A stretch of DNA of 62,821 bases, counting the filler, from an uncultured bacterium (GTDB lineage: Bacteria > DYJV01), in the NCBI GenBank assembly GCA_964543655.1. It is 4 parts of 4 records of this genome, joined end to end, with 100 filler letters (N's around TTAATTAATTAA, not from the genome) between each part and the next. Parts side by side here need not be neighbours in the genome. Positions count along the whole stretch, not along the records: positions 16,957 to 43,557 come from CAZIZE010000018.1; 3 more parts are not named here. One strand, given 5' to 3'. Under the pieces are notes generated by a model. That model saw nothing but the letters and a program-made list of their open reading frames with translations. It made no database searches and was not told the DNA's origin. Position numbers and translations under genes: made by a program. Positions within the stretch are counted from its first letter, which is position 1. Every line of letters begins with the position of its first letter. Positions 16,959-41,956 of this stretch are shown in pieces.

Positions 16959-17738
16959 GTGGATGGAGAGACATTTGGTTATGTAAATAAATTCATTACA
17001 GAACTTAAAAAAAGTGAATATCTTTTTTCATACTTATGGATTGAAAATAATAACAACCGTATAAAAAGAATAGATGAGCTTTTAGAAAATGAAACAACCA
17101 TTGTGGATATTTTGTCAGACAGGACAGGACAAGATTTCATTGCAAATAATTTTACAATATCATCTGCTATTTTTAATCCTAAAGATGATGAATTATTAGT
17201 TGCAGACAACAAAGTTCCAGCTTCAATTGGAGAGTATAGATGTTTTGTCTTATCAGAATTATTTGCAGGTAATGTTAAGGAGAGAGATAAAATTTCAACA
17301 TTAAACAGCTCCACCTTTAATAGGGATAACATTAAAAATATAGTTGATGCGTATGATAATTATTTAGTCTCCTGTAATAAAAGTAAATTTTTAAAATCAA
17401 TTGAAAATATTGACCAAATGCCAGCTCCTCTATTTAAAGCTGTAATTCTTGCTAAAAAAGGGAGGTTGCAACTTGCATTAAAATGCATTGATGAATTAAT
17501 TAAAGGAGATAGCCTTAAAGGTTACAGATTATTTACTACATTACTTTTAAAGGGTATTTTCTTAGATATTTATAAAAAAAGAGAGGAATCAATTACTATT
17601 TATAGAGAATTGCTCTTAAATCAGCATTATCCAGATATTATTTTTTACTGTTTAAAATTTTTAAAAAAACCTGCGAGTAAGAGATATTTGGAGCGTATTG
17701 ACATTAATATGTTTCTGTCTCATATTATAATAGTGTAA
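16959..17738 (+). CDS. Hypothetical protein, 5'-truncated; possible C45-peptidase-like region followed by TPR-like helices
   Basis: Begins at contig edge; ILSDR...TISSAIFNP...LLVA...PAS.GEY segment then amphipathic helices. Confidence 0.45.
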   Translation: MDGETFGYVNKFITELKKSEYLFSYLWIENNNNRIKRIDELLENETTIVDILSDRTGQDFIANNFTISSAIFNPKDDELLVADNKVPASIGEYRCFVLSELFAGNVKERDKISTLNSSTFNRDNIKNIVDAYDNYLVSCNKSKFLKSIENIDQMPAPLFKAVILAKKGRLQLALKCIDELIKGDSLKGYRLFTTLLLKGIFLDIYKKREESITIYRELLLNQHYPDIIFYCLKFLKKPASKRYLERIDINMFLSHIIIV

Positions 17739-18658
17739 TCTTTAATTTCATCAATTGCAACAACCTTATTCCTTCCTCTTCTTTTTGCTTCATATAGCAT
17801 CTGGTCTGCCTGCTGTAAAAGGAGGGATGAGTTAGATGCTCTACTAATATGGGATATTCCAAAGCTCATTGTAATTGGAATAGAAAAATTTTTAATGATG
17901 AAAACCTCATTTTTTAAACTCTGCCTAACCCTCTCTGCAATATTTTTGGCAACTTTTATACTGGTGTGTGGGAGAATTATTAAAAATTCTTCTCCTCCAT
18001 ACCTGCCAACAGTATCATACTTTCGTATACTTTTTTTTAAAATTTTACCAATATGTTTCAACACACTGTCGCCAACAAGATGTCCATAAGAATCATTTAC
18101 TCTTTTAAAAAAATCAATGTCACTCATAATAACAGAAAGATCATCATTTAATCTTTTTGCTCTTTCAAATTCAGAATTAAGCCGTTCAAGAATGGTTTGT
18201 CTGTTAAAAGTGCCAGTAAGAGGATCTTTAATTGAGGCTTCATAAAGTTTGTCATAGCAGTCTTTTAAATTGTTCTGATACGTTAAAATTCTTTCACCAG
18301 CCTTAATTCTGACTTTTAATTCTTCAAAGTTAAAAGGTTTCATAAGGTAATCATCTGCACCTTGAGACAGTGCCTCAACAACGTCCCTTCTCGTTTTCTG
18401 GCCAGTGATAATTATAATGTAAACATAATTATCTCTAAATTTATTTCTAATTAAATTGCAGATTTCAATTCCTGATGTTTCATCAAGAACCCAATCAATT
18501 AATGCCATCTGTATAGAGTGAGTTTTGATTAATTCTAATGCTGCAAAAGGCTTTGAGGCTTCAAAAACATTATAATTCCATTTTGTAAGGTATATTTTTA
18601 AAAGCTCTCTTGAATCTTTGTCATCTTCTATAATTAAAATATTTTTGTTTTCCAGCAT
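17720..18658 (-). CDS. Response-regulator diguanylate cyclase (REC-GGDEF)
   Basis: IIEDD, LIDW, GADDYLMKPF receiver; DPLTG, DIDFFKRVNDSYGH, RKYD I-site, RYGGEEF. Confidence 0.94.
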   Translation of the reverse strand: MLENKNILIIEDDKDSRELLKIYLTKWNYNVFEASKPFAALELIKTHSIQMALIDWVLDETSGIEICNLIRNKFRDNYVYIIIITGQKTRRDVVEALSQGADDYLMKPFNFEELKVRIKAGERILTYQNNLKDCYDKLYEASIKDPLTGTFNRQTILERLNSEFERAKRLNDDLSVIMSDIDFFKRVNDSYGHLVGDSVLKHIGKILKKSIRKYDTVGRYGGEEFLIILPHTSIKVAKNIAERVRQSLKNEVFIIKNFSIPITMSFGISHISRASNSSLLLQQADQMLYEAKRRGRNKVVAIDEIKDYTIII

Positions 18659-18669
18659 AAAATATTAAA

Positions 18670-18685
18670 TGCAATTAACATACCA
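18670..18685 (-). promoter_or_regulatory. sigma54 promoter TGGTATGTTAATTGCA for the diguanylate cyclase
   Basis: GG-N10-GC with TTGCA; predicted +1 at about the ATG. Confidence 0.7.
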
Positions 18686-18705
18686 AAAAAAGAAATATTT
18701 CACTA

Positions 18706-18721
18706 TGGCATTTCTCTTGCA
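18706..18721 (+). promoter_or_regulatory. sigma54 promoter TGGCATTTCTCTTGCA
   Basis: TGGCA-N6-TTGCA, 36 nt upstream of an ATG with SD AAGGAGG. Confidence 0.85.
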
Positions 18722-18757: not shown

Positions 18758-20086
18758 ATGTGTAACAGAATTTCTTTGAAATTTGTTATTGTGGTAATGT
18801 GTATTTTTTTTACAACAATCCTGTATGCATCTCAATCTTGTGTCACATCAACCTGTCATTCAAAGATTAAAAAGTACAAGTACCTGCATGGACCTGTTGG
18901 AGCAATGCAATGTGATATCTGTCACCAGGCAAGTAAGGCTCAAATTAAAAAACATATAAATAGACCTAAAAGTTTTGTTGATTTTAAATCTCCAACTGGT
19001 GATAAAAGTATATGCATTATGTGTCATGACAACAAATGGAAAGGGAAATATATTCATGAGCCAGTGGCAGATGGTGATTGTACTGGATGTCACAACCCTC
19101 ATGGTGGACCTAATAGATTTTTTATTCAATCAAAAAGGGAAGCAGATACTTGTTTCCAATGTCATGAAAATAATAAAACAGTAAAAAAATTTTTACATGG
19201 CCCAGTAAGTGCTGGAGAGTGTACAGCCTGCCATACACCACATGCTTCAAACTATAAATTTCAATTAAAAGCAAGCCCAGATAAAATTTGTTATACCTGT
19301 CACAGTGATAAAAAAGCTTGGCAGAAATATCCAGTTAAACATATGCCATTTATACGAGGGTGTACCAAATGTCATGATGCACATAATTCTGATGTAAAAA
19401 TGCAGTTAAAAGCAAAAAGTGAAGAAGCACTCTGTTTAAAATGCCATTCAAAAATTAAAAAACATCAAAAGATTGTAAAAGAAATAAAAAATTCAAAATA
19501 TCCTCATAGACCTGTTTTTAAAGGTAAGTGTGGGAGATGCCACAATCCTCATGCTACTAAATTTGATAATCTGTTAAGAGCTTCAGAAAAGAATATTTGT
19601 TTTAAATGCCATAAAAAGATTGCAAAAAGGATAAAAACCTGCAAATATATTCATGGTCCAGTAAAGAGTGATGGATGTGCAGCATGCCATGAAGTACATG
19701 GTTCAAATAATCCTTTTATTCTTGAAAAATACTTTCCTAAAAAATTTTACAACAATTATTCAAAAGGGATGTATGACCTATGCTTTGAATGCCATGATGA
19801 AAAGAAAATATCTGATCCAAATTTTATGGGTACCAATTTTAGAAATGGCAATGTAAATCTCCACTACCTACACGTGTTAATACCAGGAAAAGGTAGAAGT
19901 TGTAAAGCATGCCACGAGGTTCATGCATCGAATCAACCTGATCAGATTAGAAAAGGAGTACCTTTTGGCTCAGGTGGATGGATACTTCCTATACACTTTA
20001 CAAAAACTAAGTTTGGTGGAACATGTGTAGTAGGCTGTCATAAGCCAAAAACTTATGATAGAAGAAAGTTTATTAAAAATCCGTAA
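18758..20086 (+). CDS. Exported 15-heme cytochrome c
   Basis: Signal peptide; 13 CXXCH plus CVTSTCH (CX4CH) and CVVGCH (CX3CH); paired-heme HxPV..CxxCHxPH repeats. Confidence 0.92.
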   Translation: MCNRISLKFVIVVMCIFFTTILYASQSCVTSTCHSKIKKYKYLHGPVGAMQCDICHQASKAQIKKHINRPKSFVDFKSPTGDKSICIMCHDNKWKGKYIHEPVADGDCTGCHNPHGGPNRFFIQSKREADTCFQCHENNKTVKKFLHGPVSAGECTACHTPHASNYKFQLKASPDKICYTCHSDKKAWQKYPVKHMPFIRGCTKCHDAHNSDVKMQLKAKSEEALCLKCHSKIKKHQKIVKEIKNSKYPHRPVFKGKCGRCHNPHATKFDNLLRASEKNICFKCHKKIAKRIKTCKYIHGPVKSDGCAACHEVHGSNNPFILEKYFPKKFYNNYSKGMYDLCFECHDEKKISDPNFMGTNFRNGNVNLHYLHVLIPGKGRSCKACHEVHASNQPDQIRKGVPFGSGGWILPIHFTKTKFGGTCVVGCHKPKTYDRRKFIKNP

Positions 20087-20099
20087 AAAGGAGGTAAAG

Positions 20100-21050
20100 G
20101 TGAAAAGGTTTATATGTTTAGGTTTAATATTTTTATTTATAGAAAGTATTTACGCTTTTCCATTACAAAAGTTAAAAATTGGTGATAAAATAAATCTACA
20201 AAATTTCAATGCAGTTAATTTAAAAGGTGAAAAGTTCAAAAATTATAAAAAAAGAAAATTATTATTTTTATGGAGACATGATAAAAGGTTAAGTAAAAAA
20301 AGTGCTAAAAAATTTATAAAAGTTTGCAGGGATAGAAAAATTCTCTGTATAAGTATTGAGACTAAAGGTGCTTCAATTGAGCAGCAAATGAAAATTTTAA
20401 AAAAAGTTCCTGACACAGTTTATTTTGCCCAAAATGTTTCAGATATAAAAAACTGGGGAATTTTCACTCTACCTGTTACAATATTTCTTGATAAGAACAA
20501 TAAAATAATTCATGCTGTTGGTTATGAAGGTCAATATATTACTAAAATTGAAAGATATATTGATTTTCTTGAAGGGAAAATAAGTAAGGAAGACATAAAT
20601 AAATTAGAAAGAGAGGCTCCAAATTATAGGAAAAGTGTGTTACCTGACCTAAATTATATTCTTACTTTAATTAAAGAAAACCAGATTAATGATGCAGAGA
20701 AAAAATTAACTGAAATAAAAGGGAAACTTAACTTAAAAGAGATTTCATCTCTTGAAAAATTAGGTTATGTTAAAGTTTTGATAAAACTAAAAAAATATAA
20801 TGACGCAGAGAGTGTTTTGAAAACCTTAAACAAATATAATCCTCATGTAAAATTTTATAGGGGAATAATATGTTACAAAAAGGGGAATTATAATAAAGCA
20901 TTAGATTTCTTAAAATCAATTGAAAAGATTTATCCTGACAAAAAATTACTATATTTTTATTTTGGAAAAATTTATAAACTAAAGGGTGATTATAAGAATG
21001 CTGTTGAATATTTTGAAAAAGTTTTTAATTATCTTAATATTGGTATTTAA
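20100..21050 (+). CDS. Exported thioredoxin-like (no CXXC) plus TPR protein; start GTG 20100
   Basis: SD AAGGAGG, signal peptide, LKIGD...WGIFTLPVTIFLDKN redoxin pattern, C-terminal TPRs. Confidence 0.7.
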   Translation: MKRFICLGLIFLFIESIYAFPLQKLKIGDKINLQNFNAVNLKGEKFKNYKKRKLLFLWRHDKRLSKKSAKKFIKVCRDRKILCISIETKGASIEQQMKILKKVPDTVYFAQNVSDIKNWGIFTLPVTIFLDKNNKIIHAVGYEGQYITKIERYIDFLEGKISKEDINKLEREAPNYRKSVLPDLNYILTLIKENQINDAEKKLTEIKGKLNLKEISSLEKLGYVKVLIKLKKYNDAESVLKTLNKYNPHVKFYRGIICYKKGNYNKALDFLKSIEKIYPDKKLLYFYFGKIYKLKGDYKNAVEYFEKVFNYLNIGI

Positions 21051-21891
21051 TTTTTACATAAATGCAAAATGTGGTGAGATATTATTCCCAAAAAATGATA
21101 TTGTAGTATCAAAACAGAAATTACATATTGTTGGAAAGCTTGACAGAAGAGAGGATATTGTTGTTATAATAAATGATAGACCAATTAATATTAGCAGAGC
21201 TTCTCTTATTAAGAAAAAGACTAATGATGGGACATTTTACATTTTCAAAGTGGATTTAACTTTAGATAAAGGCGAGAATATAATTAAAGTAATTAATAGC
21301 GAGCTTGATAAAACTATTTTAATTAAATACCAGAAATATGCAGAGCAACAATTGTCGTGTTTAAAAACGAGTTTATTTCACATGGATGACAATAGGGTCT
21401 TTTGTAAAATCTGCCATAATTTCAATAATATTAAAGAGTGCAATACCTGTCATAGTGATAAAAATCGTGGGAAATTTGTGCATGGTCCTGTTGCAACATG
21501 GCAATGCTTTATATGTCATGACAAAAATAATTATTTTGCTATAAAGCAACCACTTTCTGCTCAATGTTTAAAATGTCATCAGGAGTTTTCTGATGCAATG
21601 TATAATGCAAAATTTGCTCATGCACCATCTGTTGCAGGATATTGTACAATATGCCATTTACCTCATATTGCAAAAGAAAAATATTTTTTAGCTGATAATG
21701 TGAATAAACTTTGTAGCAAATGTCATGAGCATAAAAAAAGTGGATTTCATGTACTTAAGAAAAAAATTAAAGGTCATGTTGATATTTTTTGTACAAAATG
21801 TCATAATCCACATTATGGGGAAACAAAATTTCTATTTAATGGTAAAATCTCAAAGAAAAAATTTTTATGTAAAAGGTGCCATAAAAAATAA
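20998..21891 (+). CDS. Exported octaheme cytochrome c with N-terminal Ig-like domain
   Basis: 8 CXXCH in C-terminal half; N-terminal beta-rich segment with LTLDKGENIIKV; start uncertain (20986 or 20998). Confidence 0.85.
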   Translation: MLLNILKKFLIILILVFNFYINAKCGEILFPKNDIVVSKQKLHIVGKLDRREDIVVIINDRPINISRASLIKKKTNDGTFYIFKVDLTLDKGENIIKVINSELDKTILIKYQKYAEQQLSCLKTSLFHMDDNRVFCKICHNFNNIKECNTCHSDKNRGKFVHGPVATWQCFICHDKNNYFAIKQPLSAQCLKCHQEFSDAMYNAKFAHAPSVAGYCTICHLPHIAKEKYFLADNVNKLCSKCHEHKKSGFHVLKKKIKGHVDIFCTKCHNPHYGETKFLFNGKISKKKFLCKRCHKK

Positions 21892-23210
21892 TGGAATGTA
21901 AAATAATTAATAAAATTAATGAGCTTCCACTTGCCAAAAGATTTTTTATAATTTCAGTAGTTATCCTTCTAATAATTTTGTTGTTTATTAATGTGATTAT
22001 TTTGAATAATTTTAAAAAAGTCTTTATAGAAAGAGAAAAAAATTTGTTCAAACAGTGGATAGAAACTTCTATAAAGGAGCATTTGAGGTTTTTTGTATAT
22101 AAAAAAGAGTGGAATAAAAATATAGATTTTTCACCACTTGTTAATGAAATAAAAAAACTTCCTGATATAATAAATATTACAATTTACTCACCTAATGGTG
22201 ATATTTTATTTACCCTTGATAAACGTGTGAAAAAATTAAAATGCATATTTTCAGATTCTATAAAAGAAGCAAGTAAAGGTAAATATTATGGAAAATTTTT
22301 TGCAATTAAAAGTAGAAGTGGCAACAGAAGTGTTCAAGCCTTTTTTTATCCATTTATATTTCAGGGAAAATTGAATGGCATTATTCAGGTATGCAAAAAC
22401 CCTTCAAACCTTTTAAAGCAGATAGATTTTCTGAGGATAATAGTGCTTGCAATTTCATTTTTTGGTTTTTTATTCTATATAATTATTGTTTACTTTGTAA
22501 TTACAAAGATAGAGAAAAGAGAGCAGAGGTTACAGGAAGAGATTCAGCAGTATCAGAGATTATCATGTTTAGGGCATTTTTCAGCAAAGATGTCTCATGA
22601 ACTTGGTACACCTCTGCATGTTATTCAGGGAAATGTTGAGCTTATTGGAGATATTGTTGATGATAGCTTTGTTAAAGATAGAATAATTGCAGTTAACAGA
22701 CAGATTCATAAAATAAACAATATTATAAAAAATTATCTCTATCTTGCTAAAAATCCTGTACCTGAGTATAATTTTTTCTTTATAAAAGAGTTTTTGTCAA
22801 CATTAATTAACAATTTTTCCTTTATTGTTCCGGATAATATAAAGATAATAATGGAAATTGAGGATTTCACTGTTTATTCAGACAAAGATTTCATAGAGCA
22901 GATTTTGTATAATTTTGTTAAAAATTCAGTTGATAGCATAGGAGAAAAAGAGGGGATTATAAAAATAAGAAGCTATCAGAAGGATAAATATATTCATATT
23001 GAAATTATAGATAATGGAAGAGGTTTTTCTGAGGAGGTTAAAAATAAACTTTTTGACCCATTTTTTACAACCAAGAAAACAGGAAAAGGCACTGGATTGG
23101 GACTTTCTGTGTGTAAAGACTTAATAGAGGCTCTGCATGGAGAAATTTATTGTGAATCTAAGAATGGCTGGACAACTTTTGGTATAAAAGTTCCTTATGA
23201 GAGGAGATAA
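21891..23210 (+). CDS. Membrane sensor histidine kinase
   Basis: Two TM helices flanking a periplasmic domain, SHELGTPL H-box, DNGRG, FDPFFTTK, GTGLGL. Confidence 0.94.
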   Translation: MECKIINKINELPLAKRFFIISVVILLIILLFINVIILNNFKKVFIEREKNLFKQWIETSIKEHLRFFVYKKEWNKNIDFSPLVNEIKKLPDIINITIYSPNGDILFTLDKRVKKLKCIFSDSIKEASKGKYYGKFFAIKSRSGNRSVQAFFYPFIFQGKLNGIIQVCKNPSNLLKQIDFLRIIVLAISFFGFLFYIIIVYFVITKIEKREQRLQEEIQQYQRLSCLGHFSAKMSHELGTPLHVIQGNVELIGDIVDDSFVKDRIIAVNRQIHKINNIIKNYLYLAKNPVPEYNFFFIKEFLSTLINNFSFIVPDNIKIIMEIEDFTVYSDKDFIEQILYNFVKNSVDSIGEKEGIIKIRSYQKDKYIHIEIIDNGRGFSEEVKNKLFDPFFTTKKTGKGTGLGLSVCKDLIEALHGEIYCESKNGWTTFGIKVPYERR

Positions 23211-24511
23211 TGCTAAAGATACTTATTGTTGATGATGATAAAAACTCAAGGGATATTTTAAAACTTTCACTTGAAAAAATTTACAATGTGGAAGTTGCTG
23301 TTAATGGTGTACAGGCACTTGAGAAAATCAGCGAAAATGAGTATGATGTTGTAGTATGCGATTTAATTATGGATGATATTGATGGTTTTGATGTACTTGA
23401 TAAGATTAAAGAATTAAAGAAGGATATCTACTTTATTTTAATCACAGCTTATGGCACTGGAGATATTGCAGTAAAGTCAATACAGAAAGGTGCTTTTGAG
23501 TATCTGAGCAAACCATTTAAAATTTCTACTTTAAAAAATATTCTAAAAAAACTTGAAAATAGATTATCCATTCAAAGCTCAACAGAAAAACATTATGAAG
23601 ATGATGAATCAGGTTTTATTGCAAGGTCACCTGTCTTTCTTGAAACATTAAAACAGATGGCAAGAGTTGCTGTTACAGATGTTCCTGTATTAATAACTGG
23701 TGAAAGTGGTACAGGGAAAGAAGTTATTGCCAAAAATATCCATCTATACAGTACAAGGAAAAATTTCCCTTTTGTTGCTGTTAATTGCTCTGCAATTCCG
23801 CCAACCTTGCTTGAATCTGAGCTGTTTGGTTATGAAAAGGGTGCTTTTACAGGTGCAACCAACAGTAAGCCAGGATATTTTGAGCAGGCAAATAAGGGAA
23901 GTTTATTTCTTGATGAAATTGGTGAATTAAATATAGATTTGCAGGTTAAGCTATTGAGAGTCTTGCAGGAGTGTAAAATAAGAAGATTAGGTGGTAAAAA
24001 AGATATTAATCTTGATATCAGATTTATCTTTGCTACAAATGCTGATTTGAAACAGCTTGTTGCAGATGGCAAATTTAGAGCAGATCTCTTTTATAGATTA
24101 AAAGTTGCTGAAATAAAGATTCCACCTTTAAGAAATAGGAAGGAAGATATTTTACCACTTGCATACCATTTTTTAAGAAAATACACTCCAAAAGAATCAA
24201 TGAAAAACTTTTTCCTATCTAAAGAAGCAGAGAAGATTTTATTAAATTACTCATACCCTGGTAATGTTAGAGAACTTGAAAATATAATTAGATCAGCTGT
24301 TGTAATAGCAAAGGATACAGGGGTAATAATGCCTGATGATCTAAGTATTGATAAAGGAGCAAGAGAAAAAACAATTTCAGCTGAAGATATATCAGAGGCA
24401 TTAAAAAAAGTAAATGGCAATAAAACAAAGGCAGCGCAACTGTTAAATATTGGTAGAGCCACATTGTATAGACTAATGGATAAGTATAAGATAATTTCTA
24501 AAAATGAATAG
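23210..24511 (+). CDS. NtrC-family sigma54-dependent response regulator
   Basis: Receiver (VDDD, VVCD, SKPF), GESGTGKE, GAFTGA, YPGNVREL, HTH. Confidence 0.95.
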   Translation: MLKILIVDDDKNSRDILKLSLEKIYNVEVAVNGVQALEKISENEYDVVVCDLIMDDIDGFDVLDKIKELKKDIYFILITAYGTGDIAVKSIQKGAFEYLSKPFKISTLKNILKKLENRLSIQSSTEKHYEDDESGFIARSPVFLETLKQMARVAVTDVPVLITGESGTGKEVIAKNIHLYSTRKNFPFVAVNCSAIPPTLLESELFGYEKGAFTGATNSKPGYFEQANKGSLFLDEIGELNIDLQVKLLRVLQECKIRRLGGKKDINLDIRFIFATNADLKQLVADGKFRADLFYRLKVAEIKIPPLRNRKEDILPLAYHFLRKYTPKESMKNFFLSKEAEKILLNYSYPGNVRELENIIRSAVVIAKDTGVIMPDDLSIDKGAREKTISAEDISEALKKVNGNKTKAAQLLNIGRATLYRLMDKYKIISKNE

Positions 24512-24571
24512 TGTCTCACAGTGTCTCATAGATTGTTTGATATTGTCTCATAAAAGCATCATTTTGTCTCA
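24512..24571 (+). repeat. Four phased TGTCTCA direct repeats (candidate activator sites)
   Basis: TGTCTCA at 24512, 24522, 24544, 24565 (spacings 10, 22, 21). Confidence 0.7.
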
Positions 24572-24616
24572 CTGATGTACTGTGTGAAATTTATAACTTT
24601 TAAAGGATGCAAGGCA

Positions 24617-24632
24617 TGGCACAAAAATTGCT
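24617..24632 (+). promoter_or_regulatory. sigma54 promoter TGGCACAAAAATTGCT
   Basis: Near-perfect TGGCAC-N5-TTGCW consensus. Confidence 0.88.
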
Positions 24633-24702
24633 TAAAAAATTACAATCTCTCTACCCTTATTTCATATATAAGGACTGGCAAAGGAGGGGAGATTCTTCTC
24701 CT

Positions 24703-28143: not shown

Positions 28144-28174
28144 AAAAAAGGAGGAGAAAATCTCCTCCTTTTTT
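28144..28174 (-). terminator. Intrinsic terminator/stem-loop between the first and second OmcS-like genes
   Basis: AAAAAAGGAGGAGA-AAA-TCTCCTCCTTTTTT perfect 14-bp inverted repeat 27 nt after stop 28202. Confidence 0.88.
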
Positions 28175-29339: not shown

Positions 29340-29355
29340 TGCAATAACCATGCCT
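29340..29355 (-). promoter_or_regulatory. sigma54 promoter AGGCATGGTTATTGCA for the OmcS-like operon
   Basis: GG-N10-GC with TTGCA, 55 nt upstream of ATG. Confidence 0.8.
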
Positions 29356-29461: not shown

Positions 29462-29566
29462 ACAAGGTTACACTTCAACGTTCAACGTTCATTGTTCAAC
29501 GTTAAAAGATACTTTAATAACAACAATTTAATAATATTATAGATGTTATTTCAAGTAGAAAATTGT
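29462..29566 (+). repeat. Dispersed intergenic repeat, copy B
   Basis: ACAAGGTTAC, heptamer array (GTTCAAC/GTTCATT), ends ATGTTATTTCAAGTAGAAAATTGT. Confidence 0.8.
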
Positions 29567-29631: not shown

Positions 29632-29647
29632 TGGAACATTTGTTGCA
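29632..29647 (+). promoter_or_regulatory. sigma54 promoter TGGAACATTTGTTGCA for the assembly operon
   Basis: GG-N10-GC with TTGCA; predicted +1 only about 3 nt before ATG 29661. Confidence 0.7.
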
Positions 29648-33604: not shown

Positions 33605-34154
33605 AAAAATAATTTTTTTAAATTTTTTTATACTAATTTTTATGGCATGTGCATCAAAATCTCCAAAGGTTTTTATGTTTCAAAATATTAAAAATAAGGA
33701 GAAAGTTGTTTTACTTCCATTAAAAAATAATTCAAAAAATATTGCAGCAGGGAGAATTATTTATAGAATTTTACTTTCTGACCTTATTAAATCAGAAAGA
33801 TTTGAGCCAATTGAAGAAGGTGAAGTTAGAAATTTTATGCAGAAAAATATGTTGTATCCAGGAGATATTCCAAATTATAATCAGCTATCTATTTTAAAAA
33901 GTATTACAAAAGCTGATATACTTATAGGCGGAGATGTCCTCGATGCAGGAAATATTAATGGTGATGTAAAAATTACTCTTATACTATGGGCAAGAGATAT
34001 TAATAATGGAAAGCTTCTCTGGACAACTTATTATGTAAAAAGAGGAGATGATTACAGAAAGATATTTCACTTTGGAAAAGTTTACTCAATTGGTGAATTA
34101 TCTTTAAAAATGATAGATGATATTGTGAAATCATGGGAAAGGGAAGGAGGATAA
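33594..34154 (+). CDS. CsgG/PelC-like lipoprotein
   Basis: Lipobox FMAC; KVVLLPLKN, ADILIGGDV, DINNGKLLW. Confidence 0.75.
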   Translation: MNFKKIIFLNFFILIFMACASKSPKVFMFQNIKNKEKVVLLPLKNNSKNIAAGRIIYRILLSDLIKSERFEPIEEGEVRNFMQKNMLYPGDIPNYNQLSILKSITKADILIGGDVLDAGNINGDVKITLILWARDINNGKLLWTTYYVKRGDDYRKIFHFGKVYSIGELSLKMIDDIVKSWEREGG

Positions 34155-34155
34155 T

Positions 34156-35745
34156 TTGAAGAAAATTATTTTAAGTTTAATCTTGGTTTGCTGTATAACC
34201 AGTTTTGCAAAAGCAAGTTATCTTGTGGAAATTAACAGTGTTAAGTACTCACCTGTTCAATTTAAAATCTGGTGGAAATTTTGGAAAGATAAAAACACAC
34301 CTTTTCCTAAGACACCTGAAAAGTTTATTAATTGGATTTTATTATCTAATGAAGCTAAGTTTATGAATCTTGATGAAGAGCCCAATTATAAACATAAATT
34401 AAATATATTTCTTCAGGTAAGGTCATTGTTACAGCTAAGATATGATGAGGTTGAAAAAAAGATAAAGATTAATCCTGACACATTAATGGAATATTATAAT
34501 AAAAAATTTTCACCTTTTTATGGAATAAAAATTTTAATGAGTGATAATGTAAGCGAATGTGCAAAATGGAAATCAGAAATTAAATCTAAGGAGGATTTTA
34601 ACAAGATTTTTGAAAGATTAAAAACAAAAGGAAAAGCAAGAAATCTTGGATGGAAAAGACCAATAAATATCCCTGAGGTTTTTAAAAAAATTGTATTTAA
34701 TGCAGAAGAGAATAAAATATATGGACCAATTAAATATAAAAAAATTTACTATCTTATTGTTGTAACAGACAAATTTGCTGGGAGTAAAAAAGATTTTCAG
34801 AAAATTCACAAAGAAGTTGCTTATAGTTACAGAAAATATATGGATAATATTTTAACAAAAGATTTAATTGAAAGACTTAAGAAAAAGTATCCAGTAACTG
34901 TTAAATGGAATTATATTAATAAAATTAAACCATTTGATAACATTTCATCAGAAATTAGCAAGAAAGTTGTCATTGAGATTGGAGATAAAAAATTAACAGG
35001 AGAAAAGTTTAAGCATGATCTTGAAAAGGATATAAATACACGTGGCCTGAGAAAAAAATTAGATGGGAAAAGATTGAAGGAGATAAAAAAATTTCTTGTT
35101 CAGAGTATTATTAGCCAGACATTGACAACAATGGAAGCTTTGAATAGGCATTATGAAAAAAGTGTTATGAAAGATATTTTCTGGTTTTACAAAAGAAATA
35201 GGTTAATTAAAGAGTTTGAAAATAAGATAATTTTGCCAAAAGTGAAGATTACAGATGCAGAAATAAAGAAATACTACAATGAGCATAAAAAAGATTTTAC
35301 CACACCAGATTTGGTTGAAATTTCTGTTATTCAAACACATGATGAAAAGCTTATAAAAAATGCTTACAAAAGGATAAAAAATGGTGAAAGTTTTTATGAA
35401 ATAGCAAGAGAAGTCCAGTTTCATGGTGCAAAGCCTGAAACAAGGAGAATGGATAATCTTGTAAAAGAGCTTAGAGATAGAGTAAAGATTATGAAGGATG
35501 GTGAAATTTCACCTATTATAAAATATAAAGATTGGTTCTTTATTGTTAAATTAATTAAAAAAGAGAAAAAGAAACTTCATGAATTTGAAAAAGTAAAAAA
35601 AAGTATAAAAAATATTATATTTAAAGAAAAATTTAAGAAATTAGAAGATGAATATTTAGAAAAATTAAAAAATAGATCAAAAATAAAAATTAATGAAAAG
35701 GAATGGGCAAAAATTAAAAAAGAACTTGGGGGCATCAATGAATAA
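34156..35745 (+). CDS. PpiC/SurA-type peptidyl-prolyl isomerase chaperone (duplicated modules)
   Basis: TTG start with SD AAGGAGG; signal peptide; ITDAEIKKYY, GESFYEIAR, GEISPII, KIKIN tail. Confidence 0.82.
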   Translation: MKKIILSLILVCCITSFAKASYLVEINSVKYSPVQFKIWWKFWKDKNTPFPKTPEKFINWILLSNEAKFMNLDEEPNYKHKLNIFLQVRSLLQLRYDEVEKKIKINPDTLMEYYNKKFSPFYGIKILMSDNVSECAKWKSEIKSKEDFNKIFERLKTKGKARNLGWKRPINIPEVFKKIVFNAEENKIYGPIKYKKIYYLIVVTDKFAGSKKDFQKIHKEVAYSYRKYMDNILTKDLIERLKKKYPVTVKWNYINKIKPFDNISSEISKKVVIEIGDKKLTGEKFKHDLEKDINTRGLRKKLDGKRLKEIKKFLVQSIISQTLTTMEALNRHYEKSVMKDIFWFYKRNRLIKEFENKIILPKVKITDAEIKKYYNEHKKDFTTPDLVEISVIQTHDEKLIKNAYKRIKNGESFYEIAREVQFHGAKPETRRMDNLVKELRDRVKIMKDGEISPIIKYKDWFFIVKLIKKEKKKLHEFEKVKKSIKNIIFKEKFKKLEDEYLEKLKNRSKIKINEKEWAKIKKELGGINE

Positions 35746-37651
35746 AAGAACAATATTTTTACTATTTTTTTGTGTTGCATTGTTGAGCTTTTGGAGATGT
35801 GCGCCCACTACCCAGGAGGTTAAACCAACCACTGTTAAAGCAAAGAAAAATTGCCTTGATTGCCACAAAGATTATTATGCAAAAGTTAGAAAAAATGGCA
35901 AATTTATCCATTCTCCTGTTGAGAAAAATCGTTGCAAAGCCTGTCATAGGACTCATGGATTAATTGGTGGCACATATTTGAAAATGGATGAGCCTAAGCT
36001 TTGTTTAATATGTCATCAGGATATTGTAAAGGCTTTTAACAAACAGGTTATACATAAACCATTTAAAAGTGGAAAATGCAACAAATGTCACAATCCTCAC
36101 TCGGCACCTGCAAAATTTCTTTTAAAAGAAAAACCAGATACTCTATGTATATCCTGCCATAAAAATATTATGTCTGGTAAAATTAAACATGAAGCTTTGA
36201 AAAATGGTTGCCTGTCGTGTCATAATGGACATGCATCGAATTTTAGTGGCCTTGTGAAGGAATCTTCCAATAAAATATGTTTAAAATGCCATAAAAATCT
36301 TGAAAAATCTCATTTTGATTTTAACGTGAAAAGGAGATGCTCTGAATGCCACAATCCTCATACTGCTAACAATAAAAAATTAATTAGAAAATATATTCAT
36401 ATACCAATGGAGAAAGGTGAGTGTAATAAATGTCACAAAAAAGACCTTACTCTTATTAAACCTGTTAAATCATTATGTAATAATTGTCATAAAAAAAATA
36501 ATTTTCAGATGTACCATTCACCATACAATAAAGGTAAATGTTTACAATGTCATGCACCTCATGCAAGTTCATTTAAAGCTCATTTAATTCAAAAAGAGAC
36601 TACTTTATGTTTGAAATGTCATCAGTATGGAAAAGAGATTAAAAAAATAAAATTTAAAACCATTCATGCTCCAATAAAAAATGGAAAGTGTATTCAGTGC
36701 CATTCTGGACATGGTTCAAATTTTAAAAATTTATTGAAAAATAGTGTAAATACTCTATGTTTGAAATGTCACTCTAAAATAAAGCGAGGTGCTTTTCAAC
36801 ATCTTAATTTTAAAGAAAAAAATTGTTTATTATGTCATAAACCTCATGAATCTAAATATAAAAAGTTATTAAAAGCTCCTCAAAAAAAATTATGTTTTAA
36901 ATGCCATAAAGAGACAAAAAAAGAGGAGATTCTTTACAGTATCCATACTCCTTTTAAAAATGGAAATTGCTCAGGATGTCATGAGCCTCACTGGGCAGAT
37001 AATAAACAGTTTCTTAAAAAGAAAAACAATTGCTCTTCATGTCATAATGAGTTTATTAAGAAAAAATCTAAAAATTTTGTTCATAAACCTTTTAAAAGAG
37101 GTGAATGTAAGATTTGCCATTCACCACATGCTTCAAATTATGCTTTTCAAATAAAAGATTCTCTTGATAAGATATGTTTTAAATGTCATAATAATTTTCA
37201 AAGAATGATGAATTCAACTAAATATGTACATGCTCCTGTGGAAAAAGGCAACTGTAATACCTGTCATGATTCTCATGGAGAAAATAACAAATTTTATCTA
37301 AAATTTAAAGTAAAGGAACTTTGTGTGCAATGCCACTTGGATATTAGCAAATCATGGAAAGATGGAAAAACTCATAAACCTGTTACAGAAAAAGATTCTT
37401 GTATAAAATGCCATTCACCTCATTTTGCTGATAATTCGAATTTTTTAAATACACCAAAAGATAAAATTTGTTTGCAATGTCATGAAGTAACCTCTGCTTT
37501 AACTGCTAAGCATGATTATATAAAGCCATCTGGTGCTTCTTGTGTTGATTGTCATGACCCTCATGGTGCACTGGAAAATAATCTTGTGTATCCAATAGAA
37601 CATGCACCTTTTAAAAAGGGTAATTGCAAAAGCTGTCATGGAGGGAGATAA
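35738..37651 (+). CDS. 26-heme cytochrome c, probable lipoprotein
   Basis: 26 CXXCH counted; start ATG 35738; hydrophobic leader ending FWRC (non-canonical lipobox). Confidence 0.93.
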   Translation: MNKRTIFLLFFCVALLSFWRCAPTTQEVKPTTVKAKKNCLDCHKDYYAKVRKNGKFIHSPVEKNRCKACHRTHGLIGGTYLKMDEPKLCLICHQDIVKAFNKQVIHKPFKSGKCNKCHNPHSAPAKFLLKEKPDTLCISCHKNIMSGKIKHEALKNGCLSCHNGHASNFSGLVKESSNKICLKCHKNLEKSHFDFNVKRRCSECHNPHTANNKKLIRKYIHIPMEKGECNKCHKKDLTLIKPVKSLCNNCHKKNNFQMYHSPYNKGKCLQCHAPHASSFKAHLIQKETTLCLKCHQYGKEIKKIKFKTIHAPIKNGKCIQCHSGHGSNFKNLLKNSVNTLCLKCHSKIKRGAFQHLNFKEKNCLLCHKPHESKYKKLLKAPQKKLCFKCHKETKKEEILYSIHTPFKNGNCSGCHEPHWADNKQFLKKKNNCSSCHNEFIKKKSKNFVHKPFKRGECKICHSPHASNYAFQIKDSLDKICFKCHNNFQRMMNSTKYVHAPVEKGNCNTCHDSHGENNKFYLKFKVKELCVQCHLDISKSWKDGKTHKPVTEKDSCIKCHSPHFADNSNFLNTPKDKICLQCHEVTSALTAKHDYIKPSGASCVDCHDPHGALENNLVYPIEHAPFKKGNCKSCHGGR

Positions 37652-38826
37652 TGAGAATAAAATTTAAAATATTTTTAGTAATTTTTCTATTAGCAGGGAC
37701 AAACCTATATTCTTTTTCAGGGGATAAATGCCTTAAATGCCATCAAAAAAAGGATATTTTCAAAGGAGCATATACTCATTCACCTGTTAAAAAAAAGGAA
37801 TGTATTTTATGCCACAGGGCTCATGCATCAAAATTTGATAATTTGTTGAATATGTCTGTTGATAAATTATGTAAAAAATGCCATGCAAATTTATTTAAAA
37901 AAGCTTTAAAAGCAAAATTTATTCATCCACCTTTTAAAAAAAATGCGTGTATCAGATGCCATGAGTCACATTCATCTAATTTTAAATCATTATTAAAAAA
38001 TCCTCCAAAAAAATTATGTGTTACATGCCATAAAACCTTAAAAACAAAGTTTAAATTTCAGCATAGTCCTTTTAAAAAGGGAAAATGCCTATCGTGTCAT
38101 ACAGATCACTATGCTGATGATATGAGGTTTATTAAAAAGAGTGGCTCAAAAATCTGTTTAAATTGCCATAAAATTAGTAACACATTAAAAAGAAAACATA
38201 GGGAAAACTTTGTTACCAATAATTGTCTTACGTGCCACAATCCACATGGGAGCAATAATAAAGCATTGTTAAGAAAAGTTTCTCACAAACCATTTGCCCA
38301 GAAAAAATGTGATACGTGTCATAAAAAAAATATAAATAGCAAGCAACTATGCATTGGATGCCACAAAAATGTTATGAAAAGTTTTGATAGAATACATAAC
38401 CATCTTCTTGGTGGAATTGATAAAAATCCATGTTTAATTTGTCATAATCCTCATGTTGGAGATAGCGAAGCACTTTTGAAAGATGCTCCATCAAGATTGT
38501 GTCAGAAATGCCATTTTGAAACATATAAACAGAAAATTTCATCTCTCTACATTCATCCTGATTGGGACAAATGCACCAATTGCCATGAAGGTCATGGTGA
38601 GAATAATATTGCAATGTTAAAAGGTGGTCCCACAAAATCTTGTGCAAAATGCCATGAAACACACACAAAATTTACACACCCCATTGGGAAGAAAATTAAG
38701 GACCCAAGAAATGGGCAAACATTATCTTGTGTAACATGTCATGACCCAATGGGAACAAATTTTAAATACAATCTTAGATTAAGCGGGGAAGGTGAGCTAT
38801 GTTTAGAATGTCACAAAAATTATTAA
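37651..38826 (+). CDS. Periplasmic 16-heme cytochrome c
   Basis: 16 CXXCH counted; ATG 37651 overlaps upstream stop; signal peptide. Confidence 0.93.
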   Translation: MRIKFKIFLVIFLLAGTNLYSFSGDKCLKCHQKKDIFKGAYTHSPVKKKECILCHRAHASKFDNLLNMSVDKLCKKCHANLFKKALKAKFIHPPFKKNACIRCHESHSSNFKSLLKNPPKKLCVTCHKTLKTKFKFQHSPFKKGKCLSCHTDHYADDMRFIKKSGSKICLNCHKISNTLKRKHRENFVTNNCLTCHNPHGSNNKALLRKVSHKPFAQKKCDTCHKKNINSKQLCIGCHKNVMKSFDRIHNHLLGGIDKNPCLICHNPHVGDSEALLKDAPSRLCQKCHFETYKQKISSLYIHPDWDKCTNCHEGHGENNIAMLKGGPTKSCAKCHETHTKFTHPIGKKIKDPRNGQTLSCVTCHDPMGTNFKYNLRLSGEGELCLECHKNY

Positions 38827-39650
38827 TACTTTTTTTCACATTACTTATTTCATTGGCTAATGCTTCAGAATGGAAGTTGATTGGCTCAATAGAAACTGGG
38901 CCATCTGGAATTCATTTGAAAAATCCTCTTTCTGTTTTTGTTTCAGCAAATTCTATTATTTACGTTACTGATTCTCAGAATGGGAGATTTATATCTTATT
39001 CTGAAAAATTAAAACCATTAAAGCAGTTTAATGCAGGTGGTGAATTAAAAACACCAGCTGGAATGATAAAAGATTCAAATGGTAATATATGGTATATAGA
39101 ACGTGCAACTAATAGCATAGGATATATAAATCTTAGAGAAAAAAAGATTATTAAAAAAAATCTTAATATTTTTCCTGATAGAATATCAATTTATAAAGAC
39201 AATATAGTAGTTGTAGACAGATTTTCTGGTAAAATCGATTTAATTAATAAGAATTTCCAAATTATAAAAAAATTATTTCCAGTTAATAAAAGCTGGAAAG
39301 GTTTTTATGATGTAAAAGTAAAAGATGATAAAATTTGTGGAATGGAAAATTTAACAGGAAGAATATTCTGCTTTAATATGGTTACTAATAAAGAGTCAAT
39401 TATTAAAATTGAGCCTAAATTGGTTCAACCTGTTTCATTTGATATTGATAAAGATTCTAATGTGTATATTATTGATAGGTATTTGAAAAAAGTTTTGATT
39501 TTCAATTCATCAGGTAAGTATGTATCATCTATGTTAACAGAAGGAGAGAGACCAGGAGAGTTATATTATCCATGGCAAATTTTAATAAAAAATAATAGAA
39601 TTTTTATAGTAGATGAGGGTAATGGAAGAATTGATGTGTTTAAATTGTAA
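38808..39650 (+). CDS. Exported NHL-repeat beta-propeller protein
   Basis: Signal peptide; IYVTDSQNGR, GELYYPWQI, IFIVDEGNGRIDVF. Confidence 0.88.
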   Translation: MSQKLLILFFTLLISLANASEWKLIGSIETGPSGIHLKNPLSVFVSANSIIYVTDSQNGRFISYSEKLKPLKQFNAGGELKTPAGMIKDSNGNIWYIERATNSIGYINLREKKIIKKNLNIFPDRISIYKDNIVVVDRFSGKIDLINKNFQIIKKLFPVNKSWKGFYDVKVKDDKICGMENLTGRIFCFNMVTNKESIIKIEPKLVQPVSFDIDKDSNVYIIDRYLKKVLIFNSSGKYVSSMLTEGERPGELYYPWQILIKNNRIFIVDEGNGRIDVFKL

Positions 39651-40725
39651 ACTTTTTATTATTTTGATTATTATTTTGTTTGCAAATTTACTTTATGGTA
39701 GGGTTACAAATAAACGATGCTCAGACTGCCATACAATGCATAATTCACAAAACAACCAGGTTGTTTTCTCTGGTGGTCCAAGCAGGGCACTTTTGACAAA
39801 TGGTTGTATTGGTTGCCATTCATCTGTTTCACCACCTGCTACTTCACCAACTGTTCCCTATATTCTTTATAGTAATTCTCCAACTTATAATTTTGATGGT
39901 GCTAAAAATACTCTTGCTGGAGGAAATTTTTATTGGGTTGCTGATAGTGGAGAAAATGATGATAAAAAGGGTCATAATGTTTATGGGATATCCTCACCTG
40001 AATCATCTTTAACACCAATAGGTTTTGATTCTGCTTATACAGACAAAGATGGAAACATACTTGGAAATAATGGTTCTTGGGATAAACAGCTAAGATGTGC
40101 AGGAGCATATGGGTGCCATGGTAAGCATTTGTCAGGATTGGGTATTGACCAGGTCTCTGCAATATATGGGGCACATCATGCAGATGATTCTGTAATAGAT
40201 GGCTCAACAGTAGGAAAAAGTTTTAGGTTCTTGTATGGAATTAAAGGAAGCGAGGATAGTGACTGGGAATTCACAACAAGTTCATCAGATCACAATGGTT
40301 ATTATGCAGTTGATAGAGTAGCAGATGTTTTTCCAGATAAAGCTTCAATAAATTATTTATGTGCAGAGTGCCATGGAGATTTTCACTCATCAAATATAGG
40401 CACAGGTTCGCCATGGTTGAGGCATCCAACTGATTATGACTTAAATAATGTATCTTCAAAGGAGTATGGAAATTATCCAAATGCATCAGAATTTTCTTCT
40501 GTTTCAAATTTACATGAATATTTTCCAGATGTACCAGTAGGTAATGATCAGGGAAGTGTTGAATCTACTGTACTTCAATCATCAGGAGATGCTATTGTTT
40601 TATGTATTTCTTGCCATAGAGCACATGGTTCCCCATATAAATTTAATTTAAGATGGGATTATTTTTCTTGGCCTTCAGGAGGAGTAAAAAATGGCTGTAA
40701 TGCATGTCATTCAGCAAAAAATTAA
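39634..40725 (+). CDS. OmcS-like hexaheme cytochrome, paralog of 28202-29284
   Basis: 5 CXXCH plus CAGAYGCH; long stretches identical to the 28202-29284 protein; start approximate. Confidence 0.87.
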   Translation: MCLNCKLFIILIIILFANLLYGRVTNKRCSDCHTMHNSQNNQVVFSGGPSRALLTNGCIGCHSSVSPPATSPTVPYILYSNSPTYNFDGAKNTLAGGNFYWVADSGENDDKKGHNVYGISSPESSLTPIGFDSAYTDKDGNILGNNGSWDKQLRCAGAYGCHGKHLSGLGIDQVSAIYGAHHADDSVIDGSTVGKSFRFLYGIKGSEDSDWEFTTSSSDHNGYYAVDRVADVFPDKASINYLCAECHGDFHSSNIGTGSPWLRHPTDYDLNNVSSKEYGNYPNASEFSSVSNLHEYFPDVPVGNDQGSVESTVLQSSGDAIVLCISCHRAHGSPYKFNLRWDYFSWPSGGVKNGCNACHSAKN

Positions 40726-41956
40726 AAAGATAATTTTTTTTATATGCTTAATATTAACTGTATGCTCCTATCTTTATTCTGGTGCATATAAAAACTCAGC
40801 TCATGGAAATACAATATATGGAGTGAATAGAAGCAGTGTTTCAGGTTATGGTTATTCAAGGGGAAATTGTGCCCACTGTCATGAACAGCATACTTCAATT
40901 TCAGGTAGCGAGCCAGCACCAAGCTCTGGAACTCCTTCTAAATTTTGTCTTTTTGCTGATAATTTTAACAGTAATAAGCAGACCGGGCCATATACTCAAT
41001 CAGACAATTTCTGTTTTTACTGCCATGTTTCATCTGGTTCTCAACAAAGTGAAGGTGGTATTACAAACTATCAGTATAGCAACACTTTTGGTGGCTATAC
41101 AACTAATTTTGTTTCTGATATTTTAGGTGCATTTAATCTTGATTCCAATAGCTCAACATATCCTGGCTCTTATCATAATCTTTATGATATCCAGAGATTT
41201 GCAAAGGATAAATTCAATTTTTTCAAGGCTGATTCAAATCCCTGTACAGCTTGTCATAATCCACACCTTGCAAAGAGGAACAAAGCTAATCCAAAAGATG
41301 CATCATATACAGCTATTTCAAGGCCAACTGACCATGATAATCTCTGGGGAGATGATGCCACAGAGAGAATGAGCAAATATTCAAATTATAGAGCACCTTA
41401 CTACTACGGTTCAACAACTCTTTATGAGCCAGGTGGTGTTACTTCTAATGATGGCTCAGAAATGCCTGATTATAATACATTTTGTCTTGATTGCCATCAA
41501 TACCAGGTCCCCACTACTCAATCTGCATCAATGAATCCCAATACTCCATCCGGTTATTTAACTGCAATTAATTGGGGTCCAACAGGTGATATGCATGGAG
41601 CAGCTCCAAGATTATTTGATATTGGTGGAGGACCTCAGCGATGTTCAGGTACTATTATAGCACCATATTCAAATTCACCTGTAAATAGCAATTATCTTTT
41701 ATCATGTCTTGATTGTCATGAACCGCATGGTAGCAAACTTTACTCAACAAGACCATCATCTTACCTTCTCAGAAAAGAGATAAATAACAATGTTGTTGGA
41801 GGATGTGGTCCAGCTCAGGAAAATTTTTGTGAATCATATTTCTGTTACAGCTGCCACACAAATAATCATGCAGGTCCTGGAAACTGTTTTGTCTGCCATT
41901 ATCATGGTGCTGAAAATATTGGTTGTGGTGGTCCATGGTATGGTAAAAATTTTTAA
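40691..41956 (+). CDS. Exported heptaheme cytochrome c, possibly a distant OmcS-type fold
   Basis: Signal peptide, 7 CXXCH widely spaced, S/T/N/G-rich; start uncertain. Confidence 0.82.
   Translation: MAVMHVIQQKIKKIIFFICLILTVCSYLYSGAYKNSAHGNTIYGVNRSSVSGYGYSRGNCAHCHEQHTSISGSEPAPSSGTPSKFCLFADNFNSNKQTGPYTQSDNFCFYCHVSSGSQQSEGGITNYQYSNTFGGYTTNFVSDILGAFNLDSNSSTYPGSYHNLYDIQRFAKDKFNFFKADSNPCTACHNPHLAKRNKANPKDASYTAISRPTDHDNLWGDDATERMSKYSNYRAPYYYGSTTLYEPGGVTSNDGSEMPDYNTFCLDCHQYQVPTTQSASMNPNTPSGYLTAINWGPTGDMHGAAPRLFDIGGGPQRCSGTIIAPYSNSPVNSNYLLSCLDCHEPHGSKLYSTRPSSYLLRKEINNNVVGGCGPAQENFCESYFCYSCHTNNHAGPGNCFVCHYHGAENIGCGGPWYGKNF

Follow-up and report, generated by a model that had tools for sequence, protein, structure and literature searches.

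Gene content of the cluster

The DNA analysed here, referred to as the window, is a stretch of 62,821 nucleotides from the genome of an uncultured bacterium (GenBank assembly GCA_964543655.1), made up of four contigs joined by N spacers. The gene cluster described below lies wholly on one of these, contig C18 (CAZIZE010000018.1, window positions 16957-43557), and from its gene set and gene order it is identified as an osc/Oet-type (OmcS-companion) extracellular electron-transfer cluster. G000 denotes the host genome, G001-G005 the other five genomes of its phylum, and L-numbers the loci that were fetched for comparison. Among the latter are 78 loci around homologues of the hexaheme cytochrome S6a, the best 78 of 581 confirmed.

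All genes named in an earlier, sequence-only reading of this DNA could be found between positions 17720 and 41956, and Pfam confirms the two NHL beta-propellers, the peptidyl-prolyl isomerase (PPIase), the histidine kinase, the sigma54 regulator and the diguanylate cyclase. The nine multiheme cytochromes contain, in order, 13, 8, 17, 8, 5, 26, 16, 5 and 7 strict CxxCH motifs, 105 altogether. The total of 110 given earlier (15, 8, 18, 8, 6, 26, 16, 6 and 7) is reached when five atypical CX3-5CH sites are counted as well: CX4CH and CX3CH in the 442-residue protein, CX4CH in the 495-residue protein and one CX5CH each in the 360- and 370-residue proteins. Such a gathering is not a matter of chance, as C18 holds nine of the 23 open reading frames (ORFs) in the genome with at least four CxxCH motifs, and 105 of their 217 motifs.

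OmcS-family cytochromes

The first of the OmcS-family proteins, S6a (28202-29284, minus strand), is a hexaheme cytochrome of 360 residues with five CxxCH motifs and one CX5CH. Its homologues number 2047 among 7634 candidates, named ones including those of Thermosulfuriphilus (64% identity), Thermodesulfatator and Thermodesulfobacterium. A profile (A1) from a 119-row alignment of S6a homologues matches OmcS (PDB 6EF8) at E 5.5e-18, covering OmcS residues 7-347. The structural model of S6a (predicted local distance difference test, pLDDT, 88.5) aligns with 6ef8_A in VIA-align with a Z-score of 15.0 (258 aligned residues, root-mean-square deviation (rmsd) 5.6), followed by OmcE at a Z-score of only 5.3, and Foldseek matches the same chain at E 3.4e-5. 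The sequence-only reading had made its interpretation depend on an OmcS fold for the 360-residue cytochrome, and profile and model searches agree in finding it.

The six heme motifs of S6a are in the OmcS register, five in the profile alignment and the sixth C-terminal in both proteins. Heme 3 has a CX5CH motif in all 119 rows of A1, where OmcS has six CxxCH motifs, and the S6a subfamily does not have the N-terminal FH motif of OmcS; heme ligation therefore differs from that of OmcS. Other invariant histidines of the subfamily are H173, H174 and H212. The histidine of the CxxCH-x-x-H motif aligns with OmcS, in which the ligand given to the neighbouring subunit is presumably His16; H36 is invariant in 119 of 119 A1 rows, and the motif histidine is kept in 103 of 108 long S-type homologues. 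One of the 12 heme ligands of OmcS comes from the neighbouring subunit (Filman et al., PMC6584659). As judged from the alignment, the histidine that would bridge to a neighbouring subunit is conserved in S6a. A two-copy complex prediction for S6a, run without folded controls, scored 0.01.

Two further genes belong to the same family. S8 (27028-28116, minus strand; 8 CxxCH) is 43% identical to S6a, matches the A1 profile at E 2e-90, and has three CxxCH motifs in the heme-3 region where S6a has a single CX5CH; 13 long relatives of S8 carry 5-7 motifs. It forms a clade of its own in the S-family tree, for which 26 of the 78 loci were chosen, giving 44 rows, and the three window genes were added. 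S6b (39613-40725, plus strand; five CxxCH and one CX5CH) is 58% identical to S6a (A1 profile, E 1.4e-155). Between S6a and S8 lies a 14-bp hairpin with A/T tails (28144-28174) that is terminator-like on both strands; a look-up of RNA holders for the S8-S6a stretch listed none. As S6a has its own sigma54-type promoter and this terminator before S8, it is the best candidate for the major filament subunit.

The fourth member of what had been taken for an OmcS repertoire of four subunits probably does not belong there. This secreted 7-heme cytochrome (40691-41956, plus strand) represents a separate family, most homologues of which have eight motifs. Its profile finds OmcE (7tfs) weakly at E 8.7e-5 and does not match OmcS, while HHalign joined only 46 columns of the 7-heme family and A1. 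The AlphaFold2 model, made from 25 sequences, has a pLDDT of 39. By heme count and position the protein is probably of the 6-8-heme Apc2a/b type; the 'apc2ab' class of Murali et al. (PMC10553843, S6 Table) is given 6-8 hemes.

The eight-gene companion block

Between S6a and S6b, eight genes on the plus strand (29661-39650) correspond to the companion genes of OmcS. Osc letters were assigned to them gene by gene from gene order. The first (29661-31604, OscD/OetI position) encodes a predicted outer-membrane beta-barrel with an inserted F5/8-type domain, its profile matching, at E 1e-58 to 8e-64, the barrel that stands beside OmcS homologues in L110-L112. The barrel of the sequence-only reading finds indirect support in a C-terminal ...SISFTF beta-signal and in Atlas neighbours named as outer-membrane proteins, and no solved barrel structure was matched by the profile. 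Next come a lipoprotein of the PelC/LpoB/CsgG clan (31568-32158, OscE position) with an invariant Cys22 and matches to 5t11 (E 1.7e-10) and PelC 9h80 (E 1.9e-7), a secreted protein of 481 residues without a lipobox (32159-33604, OscF position) having a weak PelC-like N-terminal domain and Ig/FlgD domains, and a second PelC-like lipoprotein (33594-34154, OscG position) with an invariant Cys19 (PelC 9h80, E 8.5e-9). These are followed by a parvulin/PrsA-type PPIase chaperone (34156-35745, OscH position; Pfam Rotamase_2, E 2e-22), a 26-heme cytochrome (35693-37651, OscI/HmlB/OetB position; 26 CxxCH) that is 32-34% identical to 26-heme proteins in L110, L112 and L113, a 16-heme cytochrome (37624-38826, OscJ/HmlA/OetA position; 16 CxxCH) with 33-36% identity in the same three loci, and, as the last gene, the second NHL beta-propeller (38799-39650). 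The latter assignment is weaker, with E 5.7e-8 for the DUF5128 six-bladed propeller and 6e-4 for NHL.

Three of these proteins had been called CsgG-like, which holds at the level of the clan and not for CsgG proper, as none of the three matches CsgG (Pfam PF03783) at E<=0.01. Among their homologues, matches to CsgG at E<=0.001 number 14 in the 30 sequences of the first family, none in the 35 of the second and one in the 35 of the third. CsgG proper was rejected. The best solved matches are PelC-type lipoproteins, among which we take 5T10, 5T11 and 5T0Z to be PelC structures; the 481-residue protein is no lipoprotein. As PelC, not CsgG, is the nearer match of the block lipoproteins, our analysis suggests a PelBC-like exporter of barrel-plus-ring type. 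Resemblance to PelBC exopolysaccharide export (PelC, PDB 9H80) lies in two lipoproteins and one N-terminal domain that are closest to PelC among solved structures, beside a barrel gene; it is a likeness of genes and profiles, and the cargo would here be a cytochrome instead of a polysaccharide.

At least five of the eight block genes were found in 39 of the 78 fetched loci, and all eight within 10 kb of fetched DNA in 14. The barrel profile matches in 10 of 31 genomes of a Geobacteraceae-family group. In L110, L112 and L113 the barrel, lipoproteins, PPIase, 26-heme and 16-heme proteins are matched in order, beside FH-type hexaheme genes; the hexaheme of L112 matches OmcS 6EF8 end to end at E 2.9e-56. 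L111 has the same order, though fragmented by frameshifts. Homology of the companion genes, on which the sequence-only reading had also staked its interpretation, is thus confirmed for the barrel, lipoprotein, PPIase, 26- and 16-heme and NHL genes, which stand in the same order beside full-length OmcS homologues. A quick version of the 26-heme tree groups the window protein on a long branch with sequences of thermophiles (Thermodesulfobacteria and a Deferribacteres-labelled metagenome-assembled genome (MAG)), with an SH-aLRT support of 99.

Side observations on related loci include fused cytochromes with 36-42 motifs that replace the 26- and 16-heme pair in L010, L014 and L071. Osc-type genes also turned up in L021, L017, L068 and L075, whose contigs bear the label Heimdallarchaeota or Chloroflexota and were probably mis-binned.

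Comparison with known systems

The closest characterized system is OmcS with its osc cluster in Geobacter sulfurreducens (GSU2504; GSU2500-GSU2493; PDB 6EF8/6NEF), which likewise combines OmcS-fold hexahemes with an eight-gene block in the same order. The block GSU2500-GSU2493, with the 26-heme protein GSU2495, is described in bioRxiv 10.1101/2025.11.06.686851, and roles quoted from Shen et al. 2025 are folding for OscH, secretion for OscEFG and morphology for OscD (PMC13194489). The likeness to GSU2493-2500 rests on published gene order, sequence homology having been established with the Geobacteraceae-family loci L110, L112 and L113. The present locus differs in its subunits (about 360 residues, CX5CH at heme 3, no N-terminal FH, 20-27% identity to OmcS), in the presence of the 8-motif paralogue S8, in the splitting of the subunit genes between a divergent upstream unit and the operon end, and in an added cassette of cytochrome and two-component genes plus a diguanylate cyclase.

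A second counterpart is the OetI-type (oetABI) cluster for direct interspecies electron transfer (DIET) in Thermodesulfobacteria, Desulfobulbia and sulfate reducers that are partners of anaerobic methanotrophic archaea (ANME) (Murali et al. 2023, PMC10553843). It is alike in omb, lipoprotein, OmpA/Ig protein, lipoprotein, PPIase, HmlB (26 hemes) and HmlA (16 hemes), an order tabulated for HotSeep-1 and Seep-SRB (S5 Table), and also has 'OmcS-like' (5-6 hemes) and 'apc2ab' (6-8 hemes) cytochromes. The nearest homologues of the window locus fall in the classes that carry oetABI. Unlike the oetABI systems, the locus is without a 12-heme OmcX/ExtA gene, and its host lies outside the Desulfobacterota (as judged by GTDB phylum size) and is without dsrA and aprA.

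The layout had been proposed to be a distinct variant, which is true only to a mild degree since both the four-cytochrome set and the divergent arm recur elsewhere. A unique repertoire of four subunits could be rejected: the set S6, 7/8-heme, S7 and S6 is present in three of the 78 related loci (L051, L054 and L059). A divergent S6a-S8(-NHL) arm pointing away from the barrel operon is shared with L004-L008, which come from Thermodesulfobacteria and a Deferribacteres-labelled MAG. Identity to L008 is 79% for the S6a subunit and only 23-52% for the other genes, so that the locus looks like a mosaic.

The upstream cassette

The extra upstream cytochrome module, which had been seen as a mark of the variant, is indeed present, but also exists in other loci that have no OmcS-type cluster in the fetched DNA. 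It begins with a 15-motif paired-CXXCH cytochrome (18758-20086, plus strand; 13 CxxCH, CX4CH and CX3CH), with orthologues of 54-59% identity in L102-L105 and 46% in L008. Downstream on the same strand are a secreted protein with C-terminal TPR repeats (Pfam) and two invariant cysteines (20055-21050; about 316 residues from its likely start), an 8-heme cytochrome with a heme-free N-terminal domain (20986-21891; orthologues of 38-41% in L102, L103 and L105), a membrane sensor histidine kinase (21891-23210; Pfam HisKA and HATPase_c, 44% identity to the L102/L105 kinase) and an NtrC-family sigma54 response regulator of REC-sigma54-HTH architecture (23210-24511; Pfam Sigma54_activat E 3e-69, 60% identity to the L102/L105 regulator). 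Homologues of the TPR protein number 32, among them that of Flexistipes (45-46% identity); a search with its alignment returned five metagenome loci, one of them 100% identical to the query.

The 15-heme, TPR, 8-heme, NHL, kinase and regulator genes occur in the window's order in L102 and L105, and only part of the cassette in L103 and L104. Behind the L102 regulator come TGTCTCA-like repeats, a sigma54-type site and then tetraheme genes; the first tetraheme gene matches 9YUQ (E 2e-20) and OmcE (E 1e-14). Compared with OmcE-type tetraheme loci (OmcE PDB 7TFS; 9YUQ), L102 thus has the same cassette, repeats and sigma54 promoter in front of an OmcE-family gene, whereas the window cassette adjoins an OmcS-type cluster, having lost its internal NHL gene. 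By its gene neighbourhoods, the cassette of 15-heme, TPR, 8-heme, kinase and sigma54 activator genes is portable, being joined to an OmcS-type cluster here and having an OmcE-family gene downstream in L102. No paper on the cassette was among the literature matches on osc-type clusters, and no search was aimed at the cassette itself. Further 5' in L102 (109-8393) we observed genes for 11-heme and 6-heme cytochromes, a cytochrome b, a 3-heme cytochrome, an NHL protein and a 28-heme cytochrome, which suggests that L102 is a complete inner-membrane-to-wire island.

Flanking the cassette are a REC-GGDEF diguanylate cyclase of 312 residues with a GGEEF active site and an RxxD I-site (17720-18658, minus strand; Pfam GGDEF E 2e-46, Response_reg E 1e-25) and an 18-motif paired-CXXCH, DmsE/MtrA-like cytochrome (24607-26094, plus strand; 17 CxxCH and CX4CH), which scores 186.8 bits with TIGR03508 (cut-off 192.2). 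The first NHL beta-propeller (26088-27035, minus strand; Pfam NHL E 4.8e-10) has counterparts following the S8-type gene in L004 and L006-L008.

Sigma54-type promoters and repeats

Sites for sigma54-type -24/-12 promoters were scored with a consensus of our own (maximum 8), by which five sites with a score of at least 7 were found in C18 against 0.74 expected from the genome rate, one heading each of five transcription units. They lie 27 nt 5' of the diguanylate cyclase gene (18670-18685, minus strand, 7/8), 52 nt 5' of the 15-heme gene (18706-18721, plus strand, 7/8), inside the first-ATG ORF of the 18-heme gene (24617-24632, plus strand, 8/8), 71 nt 5' of S6a (29340-29355, minus strand, 7/8) and 29 nt 5' of the barrel gene (29632-29647, plus strand, 7/8). 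Because of the position of the third site, TTG 24703 is the probable start codon of the 18-heme gene, and only with this start does the site count as a unit head. Genome-wide, 13 of 659 unit heads score at least 7, the others including flagellar (flhA) and amtB genes, as read from N-termini; rpoN is present in G000. Among S6-type homologues, a site scoring at least 6 lies upstream in 20 of 88 cases, against 1.7 expected. None of the 27 barrel homologues has a sigma54 site of at least that score, and no site scoring at least 7 was found at the divergent junction of L004 and L006-L008, indicating that the full sigma54 regulon is particular to the window locus. A sigma70 scan (98 sites found, 75 expected) is uninformative in such AT-rich DNA.

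Directly 3' of the regulator stop codon, four TGTCTCA direct repeats (24512-24571, plus strand) form a candidate activator-binding site. They are the only cluster in the genome of at least three such repeats within 100 nt, and L102 and L105 have similar repeats after their orthologous regulator genes. A palindromic activator site common to the regions upstream of the five promoters was not found. Two other elements were noted: a 15-pair hairpin over the likely ribosome-binding site of the 18-heme gene (24676-24708), for which translational control is possible, and a dispersed repeat of about 100 bp with TTCAACG units (29480-29566) between two divergent sigma54 promoters, with copies at dozens of sites in G000 and G002. 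A run of the TTCAACG 7-mer also occurs 3' of the regulator in L105.

We tentatively raise the possibility, itself rather doubtful, that the cassette is an undescribed, portable 'nanowire controller', which would use cytochromes of its own to sense the redox state of the periplasm and, by binding to the TGTCTCA repeats, turn on the docked wire (OmcS-type here, OmcE-type in L102) together with the diguanylate cyclase. In a dsr-less phylum with Wood-Ljungdahl genes, it would drive a wire that possibly includes an OmcS-fold subunit of eight hemes, two of them additional and possibly branching.

Proposed function

Building on the subunit fold, the gene set and its order, and the promoter motifs, we propose that the locus probably builds nanowires under sigma54 control, that S6a is their major subunit and that they serve outward respiration to insoluble acceptors. 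By analogy with work on Geobacter, export to the periplasm and maturation by the host ResB and CcsB proteins would apply to S6a and perhaps to S6b and S8. The parvulin would help to fold S6a, which would then pass through the outer-membrane barrel and the PelC-like lipoprotein assembly and polymerize head to tail, the conserved CxxCH-x-x-H histidine bridging the subunits. Electrons would be carried across the envelope by the 26- and 16-heme cytochromes. The upstream cassette most likely turns on all five transcription units, and through its control of the diguanylate cyclase, wires and biofilm would be formed in step. In a host such as G000, which encodes NiFe hydrogenases, NapC/NirT-type octahemes (quinol dehydrogenases) and other porin-cytochrome modules and lacks dsrA and aprA, the wires most likely serve respiration to minerals of Fe(III), Mn(IV) or the like; G000 also has a Psr/Phs-like reductase, a type II DMSO-family reductase, ResB and CcsB.

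Several points weigh against this proposal. S6a shares only 20-27% identity with OmcS, which was not found by a single-sequence phmmer search of S6a against the PDB; the Foldseek superposition on 6ef8_A has a TM-score of 0.43 and an rmsd of 11.6; and the CX5CH motif and the missing FH motif set the subfamily apart. Our sigma54 consensus is home-made, and the action of the local regulator on the five promoters is something we infer. In some studies OmcS was dispensable for growth on anodes and Fe(III) oxide (PMC13194489). C18 ranks 51st of 56 contigs in tetranucleotide distance, for which its content of heme motifs may account, and within the phylum the cluster is confined to G000 and G004, its absence from four of the five other genomes meaning that it is not a core trait. 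Finally, the locus is known here from genes and models.

An unlikely alternative, though the strongest of those considered, is that the OetI barrel and the 26- and 16-heme cytochromes form an envelope-spanning porin-cytochrome conduit, the OmcS-fold proteins staying at the surface as monomers or short oligomers like OscC/OmcT. OetABI was modelled as such a conduit by Murali et al. (PMC10553843), GSU2501-like hexahemes accompany the eight-gene block even without omcS (bioRxiv 10.1101/2025.11.06.686851), and S6a has diverged far from OmcS. However, its inter-subunit histidine position is conserved, it has the promoter and terminator of its own that befit an abundant structural subunit, and in syntrophic sulfate reducers the OmcS-like proteins rank with those of highest expression (PMC10553843).

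Rather improbable is a flow of electrons inward or between cells, with wires drawing on conductive sulfide minerals or a partner to support Wood-Ljungdahl CO2 fixation, or shedding electrons to a partner. Acetyl-CoA synthase/CO dehydrogenase (ACS/CODH) genes, of AcsABCDE type in G000, are present in five of the six genomes of the phylum and are accompanied by Fhs in G000, and it is by this kind of cluster that ANME-partner sulfate reducers have been proposed to take up electrons (PMC10553843). On the other hand, the host offers no dsrA/aprA sink for incoming electrons and has donors of its own (hydrogenases, and acyl-CoA dehydrogenase-like genes judged from N-termini), and relatives with ACS are without the cluster. 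The Wood-Ljungdahl pathway can also run oxidatively. Mineral reduction or interspecies transfer had both been suggested for the nanowires by the sequence-only reading; the former agrees with our proposal, and the DIET role of an ANME partner is unlikely, as none of the six genomes has a dsrA above the cut-off and no aprA was found in G000 (94% complete). An ANME-partner sulfate reducer was rejected on these grounds.

The machinery itself is published and widespread; what is new is the host phylum and the added control module, and a specialist would regard the host as new and the system as expected. The OmcS/osc machinery is hereby extended to a six-genome phylum of non-sulfate-reducing anaerobes, a candidate mineral-respiring lineage. 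The locus, which combines five sigma54 promoters with a cognate activator and a candidate binding repeat, provides a handle on the regulation of nanowire loci, and its subunits provide one on whether divergent OmcS paralogues (CX5CH type and eight-heme type) form wires.

Host genome and residence of the locus

G000 has a size of 2.26 Mb and belongs to a GTDB phylum of six genomes in one order. The host is AT-rich, the window having a GC content of 30.4%. GyrB has 15 relatives at 70-93% identity, after which identity drops to 59-60% (Deltaproteobacteria MAGs). The host assembly contains no 16S gene and the window no tRNA; leuS, rel and ligA are on contigs other than C18.

The nearest homologues and the lack of the cluster in a same-genus genome might suggest that C18 was binned wrongly and stems from Thermodesulfobacteria or Deferribacteres, but this is hardly credible. 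C18 is joined to C55 and C17 by unique exact overlaps of 141 bp with a host gene crossing the left junction, its G+C content at third codon positions (GC3) is like that of the genome, and the contamination estimate is 0.11%. Moreover, a collinear fragment of 3.6 kb with 70-77% protein and 74% DNA identity is present in G004, another genome of the order; we regard contamination as largely refuted.

The unique contig overlaps, the matching GC3, flanking genes common to G001-G003 and a presence in G000 and G004 only indicate that the locus is resident, ameliorated and patchy, either through old acquisition with losses or through transfer within the order. The barrel query and the TPR profile each gave no match in all five related genomes of the phylum. 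The search for a clean empty site gave none: in G001 an unrelated gene comes after the left-flank gene, and the right-flank genes are on a different contig.

Some minor observations concern the rest of the host genome. L092 (G000:C83:13100-16700) holds a decaheme and porin pair of the GSU2203/GSU2204 family (OmcK/L-type), both above the NCBIfam cut-off. A second candidate conduit in L090 (G000:C20:4900-11500) comprises a 461-residue protein without a Pfam match, a 12-heme cytochrome and a 7-heme MtrC-domain cytochrome of 1199 residues. In L089 (1946-4141) the Psr/Phs-like molybdopterin subunit is split into ORFs of 178 and 547 residues, 15 nt apart, which may reflect either a break or an in-frame stop codon decoded as selenocysteine. 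Elsewhere in the window, on other contigs, positions 46574-51694 and 56216-59313 carry, as judged from translations only, glutamate-synthase-type genes that are split, as well as genes for a CooS-type CO dehydrogenase, its Fe-S partner and an oxidoreductase. Downstream of the cluster, a gene for a secreted protein of more than 460 residues (42174-43557), without a Pfam or NCBIfam match, runs off the end of C18 into C17.

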